Below are positions 1 to 9,003 of a stretch of DNA of 64,000 bases, piece by piece. Source of the stretch: Minisyncoccota bacterium. Its GTDB lineage: Bacteria; Patescibacteriota; Minisyncoccia; Minisyncoccales; Minisyncoccaceae. Each line of letters opens with the position of its first letter. The stretch's first letter is position 1. Position numbers and translations under genes: made by a program. The stretch lies in contig JBBABL010000001.1 in the NCBI GenBank assembly GCA_041657645.1, positions 1,407 through 65,406 of the forward strand, written 5' to 3'. A model generated the notes under the pieces. That model was not told where the DNA came from. It ran no database searches and was given only the letters and a program-made list of their open reading frames with translations.

Positions 1-2
1 CT

Positions 3-1577
3 GCTGTATGTAGACATAGCGACCTAGAGCCAAAGAGTAGCTGTAGGTTATGCTTAGTTTCAATCAAAGGAATAAATGGATTTCATACTTCCTGTTCAAC
101 GTATGTTGAGAATGGAATGGAGGTAACAACCGATTCTCCAGAAATTAGAAAATTAAGAAAGATTAATTTAGAACTTTTGTTTTCTCAACACATAGAACAA
201 TGCAACCAATGTAATTGGAAATATAAATGTAGGCTTTTGTCTTTAGCAAAGGACTATAATATTAAAATAACAAAGTTTAATGACAGAAAGAAAGGTTTCC
301 CTGAAAAGAAATTCGGACCATCGATAGTTTTTGATAGCTCAAAGTGTATTGATTGTAAAAACTGTGTTCAGATGTGCCAAAAACAAGGAATAGGATATTT
401 AACGGTTAAAGAAAAAGATGGTTTTTTCCAAGTAGTCACGGATCCGAAAAAAGAGTGTGTCTATTGCGGACAGTGCATAACTCATTGTCCAAGCGGAGCC
501 TTTGAAGAAGTAAGTTCAGTTGAAGATGTTGAAAAAGAATTAAAGAATAATTATGTTGTCTTTCAGTTTGCGCCTGCGATTAGAAGTAGTATTGGTGAAG
601 AATTCGGAATGCCTTATGGCTCTATAACTACAGGCAAGCTTGCTGCTAGTATTAAAAAATTAGGAGCAAAGAAAGTTTTTGATGTGTCTGTAAGCGCAGA
701 TATAACTACAATTGAAGAAGGAGGTGAGTTAATTGAGAGATTAAGTAGTGGTAAAAATTTACCAATGTTTACTTCTTGTTGTCCTTCTTGGGTTAGGTAT
801 GTTGAAGTGTATAGACCAGAATTAGCAAAAAATTTAACATCAGTAAGATCGCCACATATAATTTTAGGAGGTTTAACAAAAACATATTTTGCAAATAAAG
901 AAAAAATTGATCCTAAAAAAATTATTGTAGTTTCTGTAATGCCGTGTACATCTAAAAAATATGAAATATTGAGAGAAGAATTAAAAGTAGATGGAATGAA
1001 GCCAGTAGACTATGTTTTAACAACTAGAGAATTAGGGAGATTGCTTAAGAAAAATAATATAGATTTCAGTAATATAAAAGATGAAGCTCTTGATCCTCCA
1101 TGGAATGAATCTACAGGGGCCGGAGTTATATATGGAAATACGGGAGGAGTAATGGAGTCCGCATTAAGAACTGTTTATGAAAAGTTAACAGGGAAAGAAT
1201 TAAAAAAACTTGATTTTAAAGAGGTGAGAGGGTTGGAAGGATCTAAAGAAGCAAAAGTTAAGATAGGAAATAGAGTAGTTAATGTCGCCATTATTAATGG
1301 TTTAGGAAATATTGGCAAAATAGATCTTAAAAAATATGACTATATTGAGGTTATGGCTTGTCCAGGTGGATGTATCGGTGGAGGAGGACAGCCAATTCCA
1401 GTAGATAATGAGATAAGGGAAAAAAGAGCTTTATCTTTGTACAAAATAGATAAAAATAATAAAATAAGAATGGCACATAAAAGTCCAATAGTCGAAATGA
1501 TATACAAAGACTTTTTAAATAATAAAAAAAATATACATAAAACTTGCCATACAAAATATTTTCCTAAAAATAAATAA
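3..1577 (+). CDS. hydA: [FeFe]-hydrogenase catalytic subunit-like protein, 5'-partial (runs off the window start)
   Basis: The frame stays open to the window edge, and the upstream residues AVCRHSDLEPKSSCRLCLV look like a 2Fe-2S N-domain. There are two ferredoxin-type Cys clusters (CIDCKNCVQMC, CVYCGQCITHCP). The H-cluster signatures FTSCCPSWV, MPCTSKKYE and EVMACPGGCIGGGGQP are present, followed by a small-subunit-like C-terminal tail. Confidence 0.8.
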   Translation, partial: AVCRHSDLEPKSSCRLCLVSIKGINGFHTSCSTYVENGMEVTTDSPEIRKLRKINLELLFSQHIEQCNQCNWKYKCRLLSLAKDYNIKITKFNDRKKGFPEKKFGPSIVFDSSKCIDCKNCVQMCQKQGIGYLTVKEKDGFFQVVTDPKKECVYCGQCITHCPSGAFEEVSSVEDVEKELKNNYVVFQFAPAIRSSIGEEFGMPYGSITTGKLAASIKKLGAKKVFDVSVSADITTIEEGGELIERLSSGKNLPMFTSCCPSWVRYVEVYRPELAKNLTSVRSPHIILGGLTKTYFANKEKIDPKKIIVVSVMPCTSKKYEILREELKVDGMKPVDYVLTTRELGRLLKKNNIDFSNIKDEALDPPWNESTGAGVIYGNTGGVMESALRTVYEKLTGKELKKLDFKEVRGLEGSKEAKVKIGNRVVNVAIINGLGNIGKIDLKKYDYIEVMACPGGCIGGGGQPIPVDNEIREKRALSLYKIDKNNKIRMAHKSPIVEMIYKDFLNNKKNIHKTCHTKYFPKNK

Positions 1578-1579
1578 TT

Positions 1580-2044
1580 ATGAATAAATCAATTTTAAAA
1601 ACATCAAGCTTAACAATAATTCAATTCGGAGCCCTTTTAGCAATTTTATTCTGTGCGCCATTCATAGGGAATCAACTTATAACAGGAACAATCGTTAATG
1701 CTACTTTAATTATATCCTTTTTCCTATTGGGGAGAGGGAGTGCGGTTCTACTTTGTTTCTTGCCAAGTGTAATTTCTTTAGGATTGGGATTTATGCCTTT
1801 AGCGATTATGATTCCTTTTATCATGGCCGGAAACATAATTTTTGTTTATTCTTTTAGTATAATCAAAAACTATTGGGTTGCCTTAATTGCCGGTGGGCTT
1901 ATCAAAGCATCATTTCTTTTTATAATGGCTAATGTTTTAGTTAATAATAGTGTTGTTTCGTCAATGATGAGTTGGCCTCAGGTTGTTACGGCTATACTAG
2001 GAGGAATTGTTGCTTATTTCTTTATTAAAAAATTGGATTTTTAG
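1580..2044 (+). CDS. Integral membrane protein, family not recognised
   Basis: This 154-aa ORF starts 3 nt after the hydrogenase stop. It has about five hydrophobic helices and no diagnostic motif. Confidence 0.6.
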   Translation: MNKSILKTSSLTIIQFGALLAILFCAPFIGNQLITGTIVNATLIISFFLLGRGSAVLLCFLPSVISLGLGFMPLAIMIPFIMAGNIIFVYSFSIIKNYWVALIAGGLIKASFLFIMANVLVNNSVVSSMMSWPQVVTAILGGIVAYFFIKKLDF

Positions 2045-2089
2045 TGATTTTTTGCTATAGTATTATTAATATAATAAATATATAAAATT

Positions 2090-2419
2090 ATGACATTTCA
2101 AGAATATCAAGAAGAAGCAAGGAAAACAGCCATTTATCCTAATAAGGATAGCAACTTCATCTACCCAACCCTTGGTTTAGTTGGAGAGGCAGGAGAAGTA
2201 GCTGAAAAGATTAAAAAAGTGATAAGAGATGATGATGGAGTCGTTTCAGAAGAAAAAAGGGCAGAAGTTACAAAAGAATTAGGAGATGTTCTATGGTATA
2301 TTGCTAATTTATCTAAAGAACTTAGCATCTCATTAGAAGAAGTTGCTTCTAAGAATATAGAAAAACTTCAATCAAGACAACAAAGAGGTGAGCTTCATGG
2401 AAGCGGAGATAATAGATAA
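2090..2419 (+). CDS. MazG-like all-alpha nucleoside triphosphate pyrophosphohydrolase
   Basis: The protein is 109 aa. It carries LGLVGEAGEVAEKIKK (an EXXE metal motif) and ELGDVLWYIANL, which are typical of small MazG-family NTP-PPases. Confidence 0.75.
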   Translation: MTFQEYQEEARKTAIYPNKDSNFIYPTLGLVGEAGEVAEKIKKVIRDDDGVVSEEKRAEVTKELGDVLWYIANLSKELSISLEEVASKNIEKLQSRQQRGELHGSGDNR

Positions 2420-2424
2420 AAAAT

Positions 2425-2697
2425 ATGAAAAACCTTTTTATAGTTAATGTTTTTGATAATTACGTTAAGAACGTCAGCGGTAATTGGTGGATAGTTTTTA
2501 TTACGGGATTAACAGCGATAGCTCTAGGGGTTTCATTTATAATTTGGCCAATAGAGGCTCTTAAAATACTTATTTACTTTATTGGATTAATTATTATTGT
2601 TATTGGGTTGTTTTATATAAAGAACAGTTTTAGAATCAAAAGAATAGGAAAGAATTATGAAAACCTTAAAGAAGACATCAAATCAAAATTCGAATAA
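2425..2697 (+). CDS. Small two-helix membrane protein (HdeD/DUF308-like)
   Basis: The protein is 90 aa with two long hydrophobic helices (WWIVFITGLTAIALGVSFIIWP and ILIYFIGLIIIVIGLFYI). Confidence 0.5.
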   Translation: MKNLFIVNVFDNYVKNVSGNWWIVFITGLTAIALGVSFIIWPIEALKILIYFIGLIIIVIGLFYIKNSFRIKRIGKNYENLKEDIKSKFE

Positions 2698-3517
2698 GAT
2701 TGATGTTATAAAATTTAATGGAGAGAGACAATCATTCTCCGCAAATAAAGTTTATAATTCTGCATTAAGAGCAGGAGCTTCTTTTTCTTTAGCCAAGGAA
2801 ATATCATTAGAGGTTGAAAAGGAGGCTTATGATGGTATTAAAACTTTAGAAATATTTAAAAAAATAAAAGAAAGACTTAGAAGTAAAGATATTCAACTAT
2901 CAATGAGGTTTAGTTTAAAAGAGGGAATAAGCAAGCTTGGACCCGAAGGATTTTTATTTGAAGAATTTATAATAAGATTACTTAGCAACTATTGCATGGA
3001 AGTTAAATCAGGAAAAATTGTTTCTGGGAAATGTTCTAAGTATGAAATAGATTTTTTAGCTGATAACAATGATTATTTATTTATTGGTGAATGTAAATAT
3101 AGAAATAAATCTAATTCAAAGATTGATATTAATGTTCCGTTAAAAAGCTTTGCTATTCTAGAAGATATAAAAGAGGGGAAATGTTTTAGAGACAAGAACT
3201 TAAAATCTTTCATTGTTACAAACTCTAAGTTTACCTTGGAAGCAATAAGGTACTCATTATGTAAAAATATTAAATTATTAGGATGGAAATATCCTGAAAA
3301 AAGAGGTCTTGAGAGAATAATCGAAGAAAAGAAGCTTTATCCTGTTACTATTCTTCCATCATTAACAAAATATATTTTTAATATTTTTGAAAAAGAAGGG
3401 ATTGTTCTTGCTTCAGAAGTTTTAGATATGAATATATCTAAGCTGTCAAAATTAGCCCCTAAAAAAAAGTTAGAGAAGATAAGAGAAGAGGCACAAATTT
3501 TAATAAATAAAAAATAA
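2657..3517 (+). CDS. ATP-cone domain fused to an Mrr/PD-(D/E)xK restriction-endonuclease-like domain
   Basis: The N-terminus (IDVIKFNGERQSFSANKVYNSALRAG...IKTLEIFKKIKERL) matches the ATP-cone pattern. The C-terminal half has IDFLAD...FIGECKYRN, which is a D...ExK nuclease core. The start overlaps the upstream ORF by 41 nt, so it is uncertain. Confidence 0.7.
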   Translation: MKTLKKTSNQNSNKIDVIKFNGERQSFSANKVYNSALRAGASFSLAKEISLEVEKEAYDGIKTLEIFKKIKERLRSKDIQLSMRFSLKEGISKLGPEGFLFEEFIIRLLSNYCMEVKSGKIVSGKCSKYEIDFLADNNDYLFIGECKYRNKSNSKIDINVPLKSFAILEDIKEGKCFRDKNLKSFIVTNSKFTLEAIRYSLCKNIKLLGWKYPEKRGLERIIEEKKLYPVTILPSLTKYIFNIFEKEGIVLASEVLDMNISKLSKLAPKKKLEKIREEAQILINKK

Positions 3518-4572
3518 TGGCATTACAAATAGGAATTGTTGGATTTCCAAATGTGGGAAAATCAACATTATTTCAACTAATTACACAGAAGCAAGTAGAT
3601 ATAGCTAATTATCCTTTCTGCACAATTGATCCAAACGTTGGAGTAACTTGTGTTCCTGATAAAAGAGTAGATGATTTAACTAAACTTACAAGCTCTCTTA
3701 AAAAAATATATGCTACAGTTGAATTTGTAGATATCGCGGGATTAGTTGAGGGAGCTAGTAAGGGTGAAGGATTGGGAAATAAATTTCTTGCAAATATCAG
3801 AGAAACTGATGCGATAATTTATGTTTTACGCTGTTTTAAAAATGAAAATGTTATCAAAACAAGAGATGATACAGATATACTAAGAGATAAAGAAATTTTA
3901 GATATGGAAATGATTTTGAAGGACATTGAAACAGTAGAAAAAAGAATGTCTTCATTAGAAAGAGAAATAAGAGTAGGAAAAAAAGAGGCTGTAAAAGAGA
4001 TGGACGTTTTAAAAAAAGTTTACGAGGCATTAAAAGATAGTAAATTAATTTCAGAAATGTCATTAAGCGATGAAGAAGAAATTATTGTTAAAAGTTATCA
4101 ATTGCTATCATCCAAACCAAGATTATATTTATTGAACGGAGAAGAAAGAGATGTAGACTCTAATGTTTTAGAATTTTTTAAAGATAAACATCATATCTTC
4201 ATGGATGTTTTAACAGAGTCAGAAAGTAATTCCCTAACAGATGAAGAAAGAGAAGATTTAGGAATAGAACTTAAGATGGATAAATTAATTAAAGAGGCTT
4301 ATAATCTATTAGGATTAATTAATTTCTTTACAACTGGAGCTGATGAGACAAGAGCATGGACAATTAAAGATGGTTTTAAGGCCCCTCAAGCAGGCGGAGT
4401 AATTCACAGTGATTTCGAAGAAACATTTATAAAGGCAGAAGTTATTAATTGGCAAGATTTAATAGATTGCGGTGGTTTTGCGAAAGCAAGAGAAAAAGGA
4501 ATGATTAGAACGGAAGGAAAAGAATACGTCGTTAAAGATGGTGACGTTATTGAAATTAAAAGTGGTAAATAA
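3517..4572 (+). CDS. ychF: Ribosome-binding ATPase YchF
   Basis: It has the GIVGFPNVGKSTLF P-loop, FCTIDPN, DIAGLVEGAS, and a C-terminal TGS-like tail ending in VKDGDVIEI. Confidence 0.9.
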   Translation: MALQIGIVGFPNVGKSTLFQLITQKQVDIANYPFCTIDPNVGVTCVPDKRVDDLTKLTSSLKKIYATVEFVDIAGLVEGASKGEGLGNKFLANIRETDAIIYVLRCFKNENVIKTRDDTDILRDKEILDMEMILKDIETVEKRMSSLEREIRVGKKEAVKEMDVLKKVYEALKDSKLISEMSLSDEEEIIVKSYQLLSSKPRLYLLNGEERDVDSNVLEFFKDKHHIFMDVLTESESNSLTDEEREDLGIELKMDKLIKEAYNLLGLINFFTTGADETRAWTIKDGFKAPQAGGVIHSDFEETFIKAEVINWQDLIDCGGFAKAREKGMIRTEGKEYVVKDGDVIEIKSGK

Positions 4573-4573
4573 T

Positions 4574-5785
4574 ATGAAATACGATGTTGTTATAATTGGA
4601 GGAGGTCCTGCGGGAATGATGGCTGCAATCAGTGCATCTTCTTTGGGCGCAAAAGTAATTCTTATAGAGAAGAATAAAAAATTAGGTAATAAACTTTTAC
4701 TAACAGGGGGAGGAAGATGCAACTTAACATGTATTACAGAAAACAATAGAGAATTTTCTCAAAAGTTTGGAAAAAATGGTAATTTTTTAATGTCTCCATT
4801 GTCTGTTTTTAACTTTGACAATACTCTTGAGTTTTTTGAAAAGTTAGAATTAAAAAAAGAAGGAAGCAAGGTTTATCCTCTTAGCAATAAAGCAAAAGAT
4901 GTTTTAGCTTTTTTAAATGATTTACTTAAAAAGAATAAAGTTAAAATGTTAACTTCTTCTTCCGTCAATAAATTCAATATTAATGAAAATAAAATAGAGG
5001 GAGTTGTTTTAGATGATGGAAAAGTAATAGAGGGGGATTCATATATTATCTGTACTGGCGGAAAGTCATATCCGACCACGGGATCATCAGGAGACGCTTT
5101 TGATTGGAATATTGGACACACTGTAACAGAATTAAATCCTTCTTTAACTCCAGTCGAAATACAAGAAAAATGGATTAAATCTCTTCAAGGAATTTCTCTA
5201 AATGATATCGGTCTTTCTGTTAATGAAAAAAAACATAATGGAGAAATTTTATTTACCCATTTTGGATTTAGTGGACCATTAATTTTAGATATAAGTAAAG
5301 AAATTGGAGAAAAACTTAAAGAAGGGAAAGTTAAGTTATATTTAGATCTTTTTCCAGGAATGACATTGGAGGATCTTAATATCCATTTTCAAAAATCAGT
5401 TAATAAAAATAGGTTAGTTTTAAAATACTTATCAACTATTATTCCTGAAAAATTAGTTCATTTTATTATTAACTTTAGTAGCGTTCCAAAATCAAGAAGA
5501 TTAAATAATTTAACCAAAGAAGAAAGATTAAGATTGATTAAGGTTCTTAAGAAAATAGAATTTAATGTGGTGGGATTATTAGGATTCGATAAAGCAATGA
5601 TTACTTCGGGAGGATTTTCTTTAAAAGAAATTGATTCAAAAAATATGAAGTCTAAAATTATTGATAATTTATATTTTGCTGGTGAGGCAATAGATGTTGA
5701 TGGTCCATCAGGCGGATACAACCTTCAAGTCTGTTGGACTACTGGTTATGTTGCTGGCATAAATTCAGTCAAAAAAAATGATTAA
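4574..5785 (+). CDS. HI0933/YhiN-family FAD-dependent oxidoreductase
   Basis: It has an N-terminal YDVVIIGGGPAGMMAA dinucleotide-binding fold, LLLTGGGRCN, and C-terminal LYFAGEAIDVDGPSGGYNLQ. I chose the ATG at 4574 because it follows the ychF stop. Confidence 0.8.
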   Translation: MKYDVVIIGGGPAGMMAAISASSLGAKVILIEKNKKLGNKLLLTGGGRCNLTCITENNREFSQKFGKNGNFLMSPLSVFNFDNTLEFFEKLELKKEGSKVYPLSNKAKDVLAFLNDLLKKNKVKMLTSSSVNKFNINENKIEGVVLDDGKVIEGDSYIICTGGKSYPTTGSSGDAFDWNIGHTVTELNPSLTPVEIQEKWIKSLQGISLNDIGLSVNEKKHNGEILFTHFGFSGPLILDISKEIGEKLKEGKVKLYLDLFPGMTLEDLNIHFQKSVNKNRLVLKYLSTIIPEKLVHFIINFSSVPKSRRLNNLTKEERLRLIKVLKKIEFNVVGLLGFDKAMITSGGFSLKEIDSKNMKSKIIDNLYFAGEAIDVDGPSGGYNLQVCWTTGYVAGINSVKKND

Positions 5786-7436
5786 CTATATATTTTATTT
5801 TTTTATTTCATTATTACCTATATTCTCTGTATTTGGTTTTAATACAGCATATTTAATTTTATTTGCTTTTTCCCTTTTACTATTACATATATTTAAACCT
5901 CAGAAAATTACATATAGTAAAATTCAAATTATTAGTTTATTATTTCTAGTTTTAATTTCTCTATCAACATTATTTTCAAAAAATATTTTTCTAAGTTTTT
6001 GGGGCAAAGGAGGAGAAAGTTTAGTCGCTCTCCTATCTATATTTATAATATTTTCCTTTGCTAGGTTAATTAAAAAAGAAGATATATATAAAATTATTAA
6101 ATTTTTATTCATTGGAATATTTTTTTCTATATTATTATTCCTTATAAAGGGAGGAAACTCTGAAGTATTGGCGATTATTTGTTCCTTATCATTAATGATT
6201 ATTCCTTATTTTAAAAATAGAAAAATCGCTATCATCACTTCTTTAATATTATTTTCCTTTTTAATTTTTATTAATATTAAAATTACTTGGTTTATTGTTA
6301 TATTAGGAACACTATTTTATGTATGGAGGATAATTGCAAACCCTAAAATTAAAGATAAAAAGTTTATTGGACTAATTGCCATCTTTTTAGTTTCATTAGT
6401 GCTTTTTAATTTTTCCCAACCATTAAAAGAAAACATTCTTCCTTATAATTATAGTTTCTTAATTGCTCAGGGAAGTTTATTAGAAAGTCCTAAGAATTTT
6501 CTAATTGGTTCTGGATTATCAACTTATAATTATCAATTTTCTTTATATAAAGATAAGGAAATTAATTTAACTAATCCATATATAGTTTTTGAAGAGGGGT
6601 CAAATATGATTCTTACTTTTGTAGTTACAATAGGACTGCTTGGGGTAATTTCTTTGCTATCTTTATTCTTCATATTTTATCGTAAGGGATTTAGTGATTT
6701 TCCTAAAAAAGATAATTTTATTTTTCCTATATTATTTTGTTTGTCGCTCCTATTTATTTTTTATAAAATAAATTTACTATTAATACTCCTATTTTTTATA
6801 TTTTTAGCTTTTTGGGATGAAAAAGGAAAAGAAATTAAATTTAATAAATTATTATTTTTACCACTTATTGTAGCGTTTATTCTAATTATTTTTAATCATT
6901 TTAACTATTTAGAAGCTGAGAATTATTATAATAAAGCGGTTAATTACTTTAATAACGAAGAACCTTTGACTAAGTCTATAACCGAAGCGCAAAAAGCAGT
7001 TCAAAAGTTTAACTTGAGCGAGTATAATATGTTTATATCTAAATTATATTTATTAAAAGCAAGTTCATATTTTGAAGAAAGATGGGTGACTCAGGAGAAG
7101 ATAAATGAGCAGAATAAATTAATTGAAGAAAATGTTTTATTATCAGAAAAGCATGCAAAACAAGCAGTAGATGTAGATGGCAATAATTTTCAAACATGGC
7201 AAAAATTAGGATTTCTTTACGAAAACATTAATTTTTTAATCGATGATAAAACAGAGGAAATTTTAACTATATATGAGAAAGCAAAAAAACTAGCCCCTCA
7301 AAATTATGAAATATATTTTTCTATAGCTAGGGTTCTTGAAGAAGAAGGAAAAACCGAAGAAGCTATGGAAGAATACAGGAAAGCTTTTGATTTGAATCCT
7401 AATGATGAAAAATTAATTAAAAAAATTAGCGAATGA
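5778..7436 (+). CDS. Polytopic O-antigen-ligase/polymerase-like membrane protein with a C-terminal TPR region
   Basis: The first roughly 370 aa contain more than 10 hydrophobic helices. The C-terminal roughly 170 aa are soluble and repeat-like (AEENYYNKAVNYF..., YEKAKKLAPQNYEIYFSIARVLEEEGKTEEAMEEYRKAFDLNP). Confidence 0.6.
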   Translation: MINYIFYFFISLLPIFSVFGFNTAYLILFAFSLLLLHIFKPQKITYSKIQIISLLFLVLISLSTLFSKNIFLSFWGKGGESLVALLSIFIIFSFARLIKKEDIYKIIKFLFIGIFFSILLFLIKGGNSEVLAIICSLSLMIIPYFKNRKIAIITSLILFSFLIFINIKITWFIVILGTLFYVWRIIANPKIKDKKFIGLIAIFLVSLVLFNFSQPLKENILPYNYSFLIAQGSLLESPKNFLIGSGLSTYNYQFSLYKDKEINLTNPYIVFEEGSNMILTFVVTIGLLGVISLLSLFFIFYRKGFSDFPKKDNFIFPILFCLSLLFIFYKINLLLILLFFIFLAFWDEKGKEIKFNKLLFLPLIVAFILIIFNHFNYLEAENYYNKAVNYFNNEEPLTKSITEAQKAVQKFNLSEYNMFISKLYLLKASSYFEERWVTQEKINEQNKLIEENVLLSEKHAKQAVDVDGNNFQTWQKLGFLYENINFLIDDKTEEILTIYEKAKKLAPQNYEIYFSIARVLEEEGKTEEAMEEYRKAFDLNPNDEKLIKKISE

Positions 7437-8332
7437 TTATAGAAGAATTAAGAAATGAGTTTCCATTAATAAAAGAAGAAATTTCTTTAAAAGAATATAC
7501 TACTTTTAGAATTGGTGGGAATGCAAAATATTTATTAAAAGTATCTGATATAAAAGAATTAAAAAGAATAGTAGAAAAAGCTAACAAACTTAAAATTCCT
7601 TTTTTAGTTATTGGAGGCGGAAGCAATATTCTTTTTTCAAACAAAGGATATGATGGACTTATTATCGTCTACAAACAAAACAAAGTAATTGATCCGATAA
7701 TAAATAAGAATAATCTAATTGATGTTTGTGCAAATATTCCTCTTTCAGCTCTAATTTCTAAGCTTAAAGGTCTTTCTGGTCTTGAATGGGCGGTAGGTAT
7801 TCCTGGAACACTAGCAGGAGCTATAAATGGAAATGCAGGAGCCTTTGGAGAATCAATTTCTGACTCTATAGAAAGCGTTAATGTTTTAGAACTAAAAGAC
7901 AACGATTTTATTGAAAAAAAATACAATAAAAATGATTGTCAGTTTTCTTATAGAAACAGTGTTTTTAAGAATAACCAAAACTTAATTATAGTTTCTGCTA
8001 CGCTTAGAATGAATAATGATATTCCAGAAGAAATAGAAAAAAGAATTAAAGATAATTTAAATAAAAGAAATTTAAAACAGCCGAAAGGTTTTTCTGCAGG
8101 CTCAGTTTTTAAAAATGGAGATGGATTTTCTGCAGGGGCGTTGATTGAAAAGGCTGGGCTTAAAGGATTACAAATTGGAGATGCAAAAGTATCTGAAGAA
8201 CACGCTAATTTTATAATAAACTTAGGAAATGCTTCCTCTGAAGATGTTATAAATTTAATAAATATTATCAAAAAAGAAGTTAAAGAAAAATTTTTAATTG
8301 AGCTTGAAGAAGAAATTAAAATTTTTAATTAA
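7433..8332 (+). CDS. murB: UDP-N-acetylenolpyruvoylglucosamine reductase
   Basis: It has TTFRIGGNAKY, VIGGGSNILF and GSVFKN motifs. The ATGA start overlaps the previous gene's stop. Confidence 0.9.
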   Translation: MIIEELRNEFPLIKEEISLKEYTTFRIGGNAKYLLKVSDIKELKRIVEKANKLKIPFLVIGGGSNILFSNKGYDGLIIVYKQNKVIDPIINKNNLIDVCANIPLSALISKLKGLSGLEWAVGIPGTLAGAINGNAGAFGESISDSIESVNVLELKDNDFIEKKYNKNDCQFSYRNSVFKNNQNLIIVSATLRMNNDIPEEIEKRIKDNLNKRNLKQPKGFSAGSVFKNGDGFSAGALIEKAGLKGLQIGDAKVSEEHANFIINLGNASSEDVINLINIIKKEVKEKFLIELEEEIKIFN

Positions 8333-8338
8333 AAACTA

Positions 8339-8373
8339 TTGACAAATTATTCAATAAGAGAGAAAATATAAAT
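8339..8373 (+). promoter_or_regulatory. Putative sigma70-type promoter for the Lys/Ala-rich protein gene
   Basis: A TTGACA lies at 8339-8344. Candidate -10 elements are GAAAAT after a 17-nt spacer, or TATAAAT slightly further downstream. Confidence 0.35.
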
Positions 8374-8434
8374 AGGAATTTGATTTTTGTAATAGGGAAA
8401 GGTCGATTAATTAAGTTTAACTTTTCTAAAAAAA

Positions 8435-8623
8435 ATGGCGGTAAAAAAAGCTGCAGTAAAAAAGGCTCCTGTTAAAAAGAAGCCTGCAAAGAAAGTAGCA
8501 AAGAAGCCTGTAAAGAAAGTTGCTGCAAAAAAAGTTGCAAAGAAGCCTGTAAAGAAAGTTGCAAAAAAGAAAGTAGCAAAGAAGGCTCCTGCAAAAAAGA
8601 AAGTAGCAAAGAAAAAGAAATAA
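8435..8623 (+). CDS. Histone-H1-like Lys/Ala/Pro-repeat DNA-binding protein
   Basis: The 62-aa protein is almost entirely K, A, V and P (KKVAKKPVKKVA units). A 26-nt exact DNA repeat occurs at 8498-8523 and 8537-8562, giving a 39-nt period. Confidence 0.7.
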   Translation: MAVKKAAVKKAPVKKKPAKKVAKKPVKKVAAKKVAKKPVKKVAKKKVAKKAPAKKKVAKKKK

Positions 8624-8634
8624 TTTTCACTAAA

Positions 8635-8656
8635 GCAACTCCATCAGAGTTGTTTT
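8635..8656 (+). terminator. Probable intrinsic terminator
   Basis: The stem is GCAACTC/GAGTTGT, the loop is CATCA, and the hairpin is followed by TTT. Confidence 0.4.
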
Positions 8657-8673
8657 AGTTATAAAGAAAACAT

Positions 8674-9003
8674 ATGGAAATAAAAATAAAAACAACAAAC
8701 GTAGAAGTAACAGAATATTTAAAAAAACTTGTAAATAGTAAGGCGAAAAAAATAGAGAAATTATTAGTGGATTATCCAGGATTAATTCTTGAAGTTGAAT
8801 TAGAAAGAACAACGAAGCATCATCAAAAGGGAGATATTTTTAGGTCAGAGCTACAGATTCAAGTTCCTAAAGGAAAACTATTAAGAGCTGTTTCAAAGAA
8901 AGAAAATTTTCGCTTATCCCTCTCGGAAGCCGAAAAAGATTTAGTAATTCAAATTAAAAAATATAAAGATAAGAGTAATCTTGAAATACGAAGAAAGCTT
9001 TGA
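8674..9003 (+). CDS. hpf: Ribosome hibernation promoting factor / RaiA family
   Basis: The protein is 109 aa. It has the IKTTNVEVTEYLKKLVNSKAKKIEKLL start and the HHQKGDIFRSELQIQVP core typical of the sigma54-modulation/HPF family. Confidence 0.8.
   Translation: MEIKIKTTNVEVTEYLKKLVNSKAKKIEKLLVDYPGLILEVELERTTKHHQKGDIFRSELQIQVPKGKLLRAVSKKENFRLSLSEAEKDLVIQIKKYKDKSNLEIRRKL

Follow-up and report, generated by a model that had tools for sequence, protein, structure and literature searches.

We found that a gene in the genome of a Minisyncoccota bacterium encodes a fusion of an ATP-cone to a PD-(D/E)xK nuclease, and that this fusion belongs to a widespread family with no conserved partner. The gene lies in a stretch of 64,000 nucleotides (GenBank assembly GCA_041657645.1, contig JBBABL010000001.1, positions 1,407 to 65,406; hereafter the window, in which all positions are numbered from its first letter). 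Its product, which we call ACN, has 286 amino acids (2657–3517, + strand) and consists of an ATP-cone, a nuclease core of the type found in the archaeal protein AF1548 and an AF1548-like C-terminal domain. A prediction made from the sequence alone had proposed that ACN, a MazG-like NTP pyrophosphohydrolase and a small membrane protein encoded just upstream act together in nucleotide depletion and abortive infection. Our analysis upheld the fusion but not the partnership. We consider the chances about even that ACN acts alone, as a nuclease gated by (d)ATP that serves the turnover or salvage of cellular nucleic acids and has no dedicated MazG partner.

ATP-cones are the ATP- and dATP-binding allosteric modules of ribonucleotide reductases (RNRs) and of NrdR; in these proteins, ATP or dATP on the cone alters the oligomeric state and thereby the activity. 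No role is known for them outside RNR and NrdR, where they regulate the reduction of ribonucleotides. The Pfam ATP-cone model (PF03477) matched residues 17–77 of ACN from the window with 22.8 bits, against a cut-off of 25.8, and reached 25.0 bits in a six-frame search. It matched all 15 aligned relatives (each at E ≤ 0.01, the best at 5.3e-9) and scored 33–46 bits in relatives from the same order, Minisyncoccales. An AlphaFold2 model of ACN built on the family alignment (predicted local distance difference test score (pLDDT) 88.9, predicted template modelling score (pTM) 0.81) showed two strands followed by helices at residues 16–92. Foldseek paired this region with the cones of NrdR and of NrdA, NrdD and NrdB with a probability of 1.0 over about 100–119 columns. 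We place the domain at approximately residues 15–92 (2699–2932, + strand).

We then aligned the ACN cone with that of the NrdD encoded in the same genome and with those of Escherichia coli NrdA and NrdR. In ACN, K19, K31, T63 and K88 fall on K9, K21, T55 and K91 of NrdA. Together with R10, these are the nucleotide-contacting residues of NrdA. K31, T63 and K88 are invariant or nearly so among ACN relatives. Nucleotide binding by the ACN cone is plausible. Besides ACN, this genome encodes a single ATP-cone protein, a class III NrdD-type RNR (contig G000:C47, positions 1477–3132 of locus L009), whose gene directly follows an FtsZ-like gene. Separately, at least 20 genomes of the order have stand-alone open reading frames (ORFs) of about 95 amino acids with an ATP-cone and nothing else (for example, G423:C3:142915-143163, G474:C41:21035-21298 and G452:C52:6648-6857), and in genome G452 one of them lies directly upstream of a 364-amino-acid ACN variant.

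The nuclease core occupies approximately residues 95–225 (2939–3331, + strand) and contains the motif YEIDFLAD...GECKY noted in the original prediction. Residues 95–280 matched AF1548 (Archaeoglobus fulgidus, PDB 1y88) with E = 3e-24 as a single sequence and 1.7e-38 as a family profile. D132 (codon at 3050–3052, + strand), E145 and K147 (codons of E145-C-K147 at 3089–3097, + strand) align to D38, E51 and K53 of AF1548, which were predicted to be catalytic by Yooseph et al. in the Global Ocean Sampling (GOS) paper (PMC1821046). In the literature that we found, AF1548 appears solely as a predicted restriction endonuclease, in that same paper (PMC1821046). Two alignments, A1 with 15 close-to-moderate relatives and A4 with 13 distant ones, show no variation at D132, E145 or K147, nor at E102, E130 and C146, the residue between E145 and K147. 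Judged by these invariant residues, the nuclease of ACN is predicted to be catalytically intact and of the PD-(D/E)xK AF1548/Mrr_cat type, and we saw no sign of the inactivated domain that had been considered as an alternative. The Mrr_cat model matched 9 of the 15 relatives. The C-terminal helical domain (approximately residues 228–283; 3338–3505, + strand) scored 20.2 bits with the Pfam model AF1548-like_C (PF22357; cut-off 23.9), which matched all 15 relatives. It also gave weak matches to RAD51D_N, and is probably a helix-hairpin-helix or RAD51D_N-like, nucleic-acid-binding domain.

The structural model supports the same assignment. Its order of secondary-structure elements agrees with a restriction-endonuclease-like alpha/beta core, and a Foldseek search of the PDB returned AF1548 (1y88) first, with E = 2.3e-15 and a template modelling (TM) score of 0.81. 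Next in the list were the NrdR cone, the cones of class I and class III RNRs and the nucleases Can2, Card1 and Cdn1 (8z4i, 7bdv and 6xl1), and other matches included MspJI, McrC and the repair nuclease NucS (2vld). The Pfam matches across relatives, the AF1548 match and the AlphaFold2 model with its Foldseek matches establish that the fusion is real. We regard a nuclease gated by the nucleotide pool, as had been predicted for ACN, as a reasonable inference from this domain composition.

A nuclease fold could also serve as a DNA-binding module, which would make ACN a non-catalytic, NrdR-like, nucleotide-responsive repressor in a lineage mostly without NrdR. Consistent with this idea, the genome encodes just two ATP-cone proteins, NrdD and ACN, and our ATP-cone search of it found no NrdR; ORFs of NrdR size are rare in the order, and too few for a count of anti-correlation between NrdR and ACN. 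However, the invariance of E102, E130, D132, E145 and K147 in close and distant relatives favours catalysis over a role in DNA binding only. In addition, ACN adjoins RNR genes in none of the 69 loci inspected, and it was not found in half of the order, in which RNR is nearly universal. We therefore consider a non-catalytic regulator extremely improbable.

To return to the genes next to ACN, all three ORFs of the proposed module are present on the + strand as predicted. The protein encoded two genes upstream of ACN is a MazG-like NTP pyrophosphohydrolase of 109 amino acids (2090–2419, + strand), which scored 53.2 bits with Pfam MazG (PF03819; cut-off 22). Its motif E33-x-x-E36 ... E63-x-x-D66 (EXXE...EXXD) is invariant, and its nearest solved structures are the small MazG-like proteins 2q73, 2gta (YpjD) and 5ie9. 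The gene between them encodes a two-helix membrane protein of 90 amino acids (2425–2697, + strand) that belongs to DUF308 (33.4 bits; cut-off 25). The MazG and DUF308 genes are separated by 5 nucleotides, and the DUF308 and ACN ORFs overlap by 41 nucleotides (2657–2697). This tight, co-directional packing speaks for one module of nucleotide depletion and nucleotide-sensing nuclease activity, and the arrangement persists in relatives down to 52% identity: the order of the trio is kept at loci L001, L002, L004 and L005/L006 (72–52% ACN identity). The adjacency, however, is not specific to the trio, because synteny between the window (3–8332) and L001, L002, L004 and L005 extends over a block of at least nine genes. 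This block comprises genes for a NuoF-like protein, [FeFe]-hydrogenase, a 154-amino-acid membrane protein, MazG, DUF308, ACN, YchF, an HI0933-like protein, a tetratricopeptide repeat (TPR)/membrane protein and MurB.

Beyond close relatives, the arrangement disappears. We fetched 40 ACN loci of the order, which together with the window represent 24 families, and found the trio in only one of these, the window's own (f1; genomes G000, G465 and G514, the first being the genome studied here). Even within this family, an extra 182-amino-acid ORF parts MazG from DUF308 in G514. DUF308 homologues adjoin ACN only in the window, L001, L002, L004, L005, G465 and G514, and neither a MazG nor a DUF308 homologue was found within about 6 kb of ACN at any of 21 loci, which come from metagenomes and from further families of the phylum. 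Elsewhere in the order, the succession of genes around both ACN and MazG is scrambled, even inside taxonomic families.

We also asked how often the two genes occur in the same genome, using 120 genomes of the order plus this one (121 in total) and a threshold of E < 1e-30 for MazG orthologues. ACN was present in 56 genomes and the MazG orthologue in 23; both were present in 13, compared with 10.6 expected if they were independent. The two were adjacent in 3 of these 13 genomes, and in the others they lay on separate contigs or 27 kb apart (G413). In 14 further genomes, the MazG orthologues had unrelated neighbours. The functional link proposed for the three genes thus comes down to an adjacency in the window's own family and its close metagenomic kin, absent from the 23 other families and the 21 more distant loci, with co-occurrence at chance level. 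The proximity of MazG and DUF308 to ACN is a lineage-specific gene order, not a dedicated partnership, and we consider a three-gene module very unlikely. MazG may nonetheless fit the same broad theme of nucleotide metabolism.

ACN itself is far more widespread than the trio. That its gene is real is borne out by its homologues: one search returned 432 of them, and at E < 1e-30 and 50% identity the family formed 278 clusters, across which the architecture is constant at about 265–295 amino acids. Named homologues are from Paceibacteria/Patescibacteria, and the family also occurs in Parcubacteria, Wildermuthbacteria, Aenigmatarchaeota (DPANN archaea), a gammaproteobacterial metagenome-assembled genome, Bacteroidota and Chlamydiota. 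Relatives carry the automatic names 'restriction endonuclease', 'ATP cone domain-containing protein', 'Holliday junction resolvase' (JGI) and 'ATPase'. In longer variants of 343–345 amino acids (G090:C25:1482-2405 and G220:C33:6773-7687), an insertion separates the nuclease core from the C-terminal domain and splits the profile match in two.

The neighbours of ACN differ even inside taxonomic families, and several recurrent associations point to nucleic-acid and nucleotide processing. A string of four genes, encoding ACN, a beta-CASP metallo-beta-lactamase (MBL) hydrolase, a thymidine-phosphorylase-family protein and ribose-phosphate pyrophosphokinase, is shared by Pontibacter actiniarum (Bacteroidota; L106; plasmid NZ_CP021236.1, 1972–6597) and Criblamydia sequanensis (Chlamydiota; L107; plasmid NZ_LK031773.1, 5034–9641). 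This string, carried on plasmids in two unrelated phyla, looks like a portable operon of nucleic-acid and nucleotide catabolism. ACN from the window is 34% identical to that of Pontibacter (WP_237151220.1). On a 1.1-Mb contig, ACN is followed by an orthologous beta-CASP gene whose product is 52% identical to the Pontibacter one. In some lineages, LOG-family and HD genes lie directly upstream of ACN. What appeared to be three independent LOG adjacencies proved to be fewer: L102 is identical to L082, so these cases reduce to one clade (f4 and f185) and one weaker case (L007).

Patchy distribution and a sensor–nuclease architecture could also indicate that ACN is a solitary defence nuclease that works like abortive infection or type IV restriction. 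Its cone would sense a phage-induced change in the nucleotide pool, either a surge of dATP or a loss of ATP, and in response unleash an Mrr-type nuclease that destroys the DNA of the phage or of the host. ACN is present in 56 of the 121 genomes of the order and in about 23 of 401 sampled from the phylum, and the protein resembles Mrr_cat. Foldseek places it near the CARF nucleases Can2, Card1 and Cdn1 and near MspJI and McrC, which makes a sensor joined to a PD-(D/E)xK nuclease an established defence design. However, PADLOC returned no match for ACN, MazG, DUF308, the 154-amino-acid membrane protein or YchF. The 83 genes that flank ACN in the 21 loci are mostly housekeeping genes (MnmA, aminoacyl-tRNA synthetases, SHMT, PGK, GAPDH, DnaA, LepA, FtsZ and PilB), with no Pfam family in more than two of them, and PADLOC gave only scattered cross-matches over these 83 neighbours, with no enrichment, no defence island and no recurrent defence gene.

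The inheritance of ACN argues in the same direction. ACN is single-copy; no homologue was found in IMG/VR or among GenBank phages, and a homologue was present in 2 of 72,556 plasmid records. A tree of ACN proteins follows genome taxonomy: of the 15 taxonomic families represented at least twice, 10 are single groups, and 15 label changes are required, a number that none of 200 shuffles reached (shuffled mean 25.6). Inheritance thus looks vertical, with frequent loss. As described above, in other phyla ACN sits in an operon that resembles nucleotide catabolism. The abortive-infection logic of the original prediction found no echo in the PADLOC results, the neighbour survey, the phage and viral searches or the tree, and we regard a defence role for ACN as unlikely.

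The most recurrent neighbour of ACN in Patescibacteria encodes a Cas4-like Fe–S PD-(D/E)xK nuclease (PDDEXK_1; about 230–280 amino acids, with CPRC...CxxC motifs), which occurs without CRISPR context and is present in 71 of the 121 genomes of the order. In G467, G515, G412 and G143 its gene is immediately downstream of ACN, and G454, G510, G438 and G195 have it within 2 kb; loci at which it neighbours ACN include L051, L069, L091 and L092. Of the 38 genomes of the order with both genes, 7, representing five families, show such proximity (within 2 kb), as do two genomes from other orders; if the genes were placed at random in a 600-kb genome, about 0.3 such pairs would be expected in the order instead of 7.

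This neighbour raises the possibility that ACN functions in DNA repair or recombination. It would then be an endonuclease that recognizes particular structures or processes ends, with the Cas4-like Fe–S exonuclease as its partner, and it would be licensed by the availability of dNTPs or ATP, so that resection would occur only when resynthesis is possible. Beyond the adjacency of the two genes, this explanation is in line with Y-family polymerase (IMS) neighbours at two loci, the Foldseek match to NucS, the JGI label 'Holliday junction resolvase' on relatives and the weak resemblance of the C-terminal domain to RAD51D_N. By contrast, the Cas4-like gene of this genome (G000:C9:6377-7093) is on a contig other than that of ACN, and co-occurrence in the order is only modest, with the Cas4-like gene in 38 of 56 genomes that have ACN and 33 of 65 that do not. 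The Pontibacter and Criblamydia operon, moreover, points to catabolism. On balance, a dedicated repair role seems to us quite doubtful.

Our preferred reading, that ACN is a gated nuclease of turnover or salvage, would work as follows. On binding adenine nucleotides at its cone, ACN would change its oligomeric state, as RNR and NrdR do. The PD-(D/E)xK domain would thereby pass from active to inactive assemblies or back, which would turn cleavage of DNA or RNA on or off, such that nucleic-acid breakdown would follow the ATP/dATP status of the cell. The role of such an enzyme in a 667-kb genome of the symbiont type would be turnover and nucleotide salvage, not phage defence. In a bolder form, which we advance only tentatively, ACN would be the first nuclease found to be controlled by an ATP-cone, with a (d)ATP-dependent oligomerization switch that ties the degradation of DNA or RNA to the nucleotide pool. 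In ultra-small symbionts, which are unable to make nucleotides themselves, it could then provide the regulated entry step from nucleic acid to salvageable nucleotides, possibly together with the Cas4-like exonuclease, and act elsewhere with the beta-CASP hydrolase and a nucleoside-monophosphate phosphorylase.

Several observations weigh against this reading. In the cone, the equivalent of NrdA R10 is not conserved, and K19 is replaced by asparagine in about half of the relatives. Members of the thymidine/AMP-phosphorylase family and RuBisCO were not found in this genome, so the salvage operon of Pontibacter and Criblamydia is not directly transferable to it. A beta-CASP homologue is present in the genome, on a contig other than that of ACN. 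The neighbour counts were taken from related genomes and are uncorrected for kinship. Within the order, only 56 of 121 genomes have ACN (46 of 97 if high-quality genomes alone are counted), and about 23 full-length copies were found in the 401 phylum genomes sampled, approximately 94% of which gave no match. Missing from so many genomes, ACN must be dispensable and often lost, which would also fit a defence gene. Finally, the ligand, the direction of the switch, the substrate and the physiological role are what we infer, not what we observed.

The genome has a G+C content of about 30% and comprises 667 kb in 80 contigs, with a completeness estimate of complete. At positions 1–9000 of the window, the genes all point the same way and form one string on the + strand. 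This string opens with an [FeFe]-hydrogenase gene (3–1577, + strand; ORF and Pfam) and the ORF of the 154-amino-acid membrane protein (1580–2044, + strand), followed by MazG, DUF308 and ACN, of which the first two neighbour ACN in this lineage only. YchF comes next (3517–4572, + strand; Pfam), and downstream of it Pfam identified, in order, an HI0933-like flavoprotein, a large membrane/TPR protein and MurB. The stop codon of ACN and the start codon of YchF share one base (3517), and the YchF and HI0933-like ORFs overlap by 35 nucleotides (4538–4572). These overlaps are consistent with tight packing and carry no sign of a common function. Promoter and terminator scans of positions 1–9000 found sites no more common than in shuffled sequence, so a transcription unit cannot be defined on this basis.

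The 41-nucleotide overlap of DUF308 and ACN, which we confirmed, depends on where ACN begins. The ATG at 2657 is the sole canonical in-frame start ahead of the conserved domain, and an identical overlap is present in the close relatives L001 and L002. In L004 and L005 (52–58% identity), ACN starts 12–14 codons later and abuts the stop codon of DUF308. Residues 1–11 of ACN are disordered in the AlphaFold2 model.

In the searchable literature, no paper came up on a nuclease with a fused ATP-cone, nor on an ATP-cone in a defence context. This agrees with the view of the original prediction that the fusion is biochemically uncharacterized, as no paper on such a protein turned up. The architecture as such is already recognized in Pfam and in NCBI protein names, and a cone-less relative has a structure and no known function. 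Because of these precedents, ACN is best described as a variant of the known design that joins a ligand sensor to a PD-(D/E)xK nuclease. What the family adds is that the sensor of RNR and NrdR has been placed on an apparently intact nuclease in a widespread set of organisms. Provided that the cone does what is expected of it, cells would control their nucleotide supply not only through synthesis but also through degradation, which matters for organisms that live on scavenged nucleotides. The value of the finding is mostly corrective, in that the proposed MazG–nuclease defence module is not a conserved system. ACN is small and looks soluble, and one of its carriers, P. actiniarum, can be cultivated.

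Among known proteins, AF1548 is closest to ACN. Both have a nuclease core followed by a C-terminal helical domain, with the D...E-x-K residues at the same positions, but the crystallized chain of AF1548 (1Y88) lacks an ATP-cone. Because AF1548 is a structural-genomics protein of unknown function, it lends no known activity to ACN. The cones of NrdR and of class I and class III RNRs share the N-terminal fold of ACN (Foldseek probability 1.0). At the NrdA positions K21, T55 and K91, ACN keeps the lysine, threonine and lysine, whereas the K-R dipeptide in the beta-hairpin of the NrdA cone is K/N-x in ACN. Nucleotide-dependent oligomerization is established for NrdR and RNR and, by analogy, would be the expected mode for ACN. 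The output domains differ, being a reductase in RNR, a zinc-ribbon DNA binder in NrdR and a nuclease in ACN. The order of domains also sets ACN apart from NrdR, a protein of about 150 amino acids with a zinc ribbon and then a cone, as ACN has no zinc ribbon and carries its cone at the N terminus, followed by the nuclease.

Two groups of nucleases associated with defence offer a further comparison. The type III CRISPR effectors Can2, Card1 and Cdn1 resemble ACN in fusing a sensor of a nucleotide ligand to a PD-(D/E)xK nuclease, and switching in these CARF effectors is allosteric. However, their CARF sensor responds to cyclic oligoadenylates and they function in a CRISPR context, whereas ACN has neither a CRISPR nor a defence context. 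Mrr-type (type IV) restriction endonucleases resemble ACN through the Mrr_cat model, which matches 9 of 15 relatives. Unlike them, ACN lacks the N-terminal DNA-recognition domain of Mrr and is inherited vertically, among housekeeping genes and outside any defence island.

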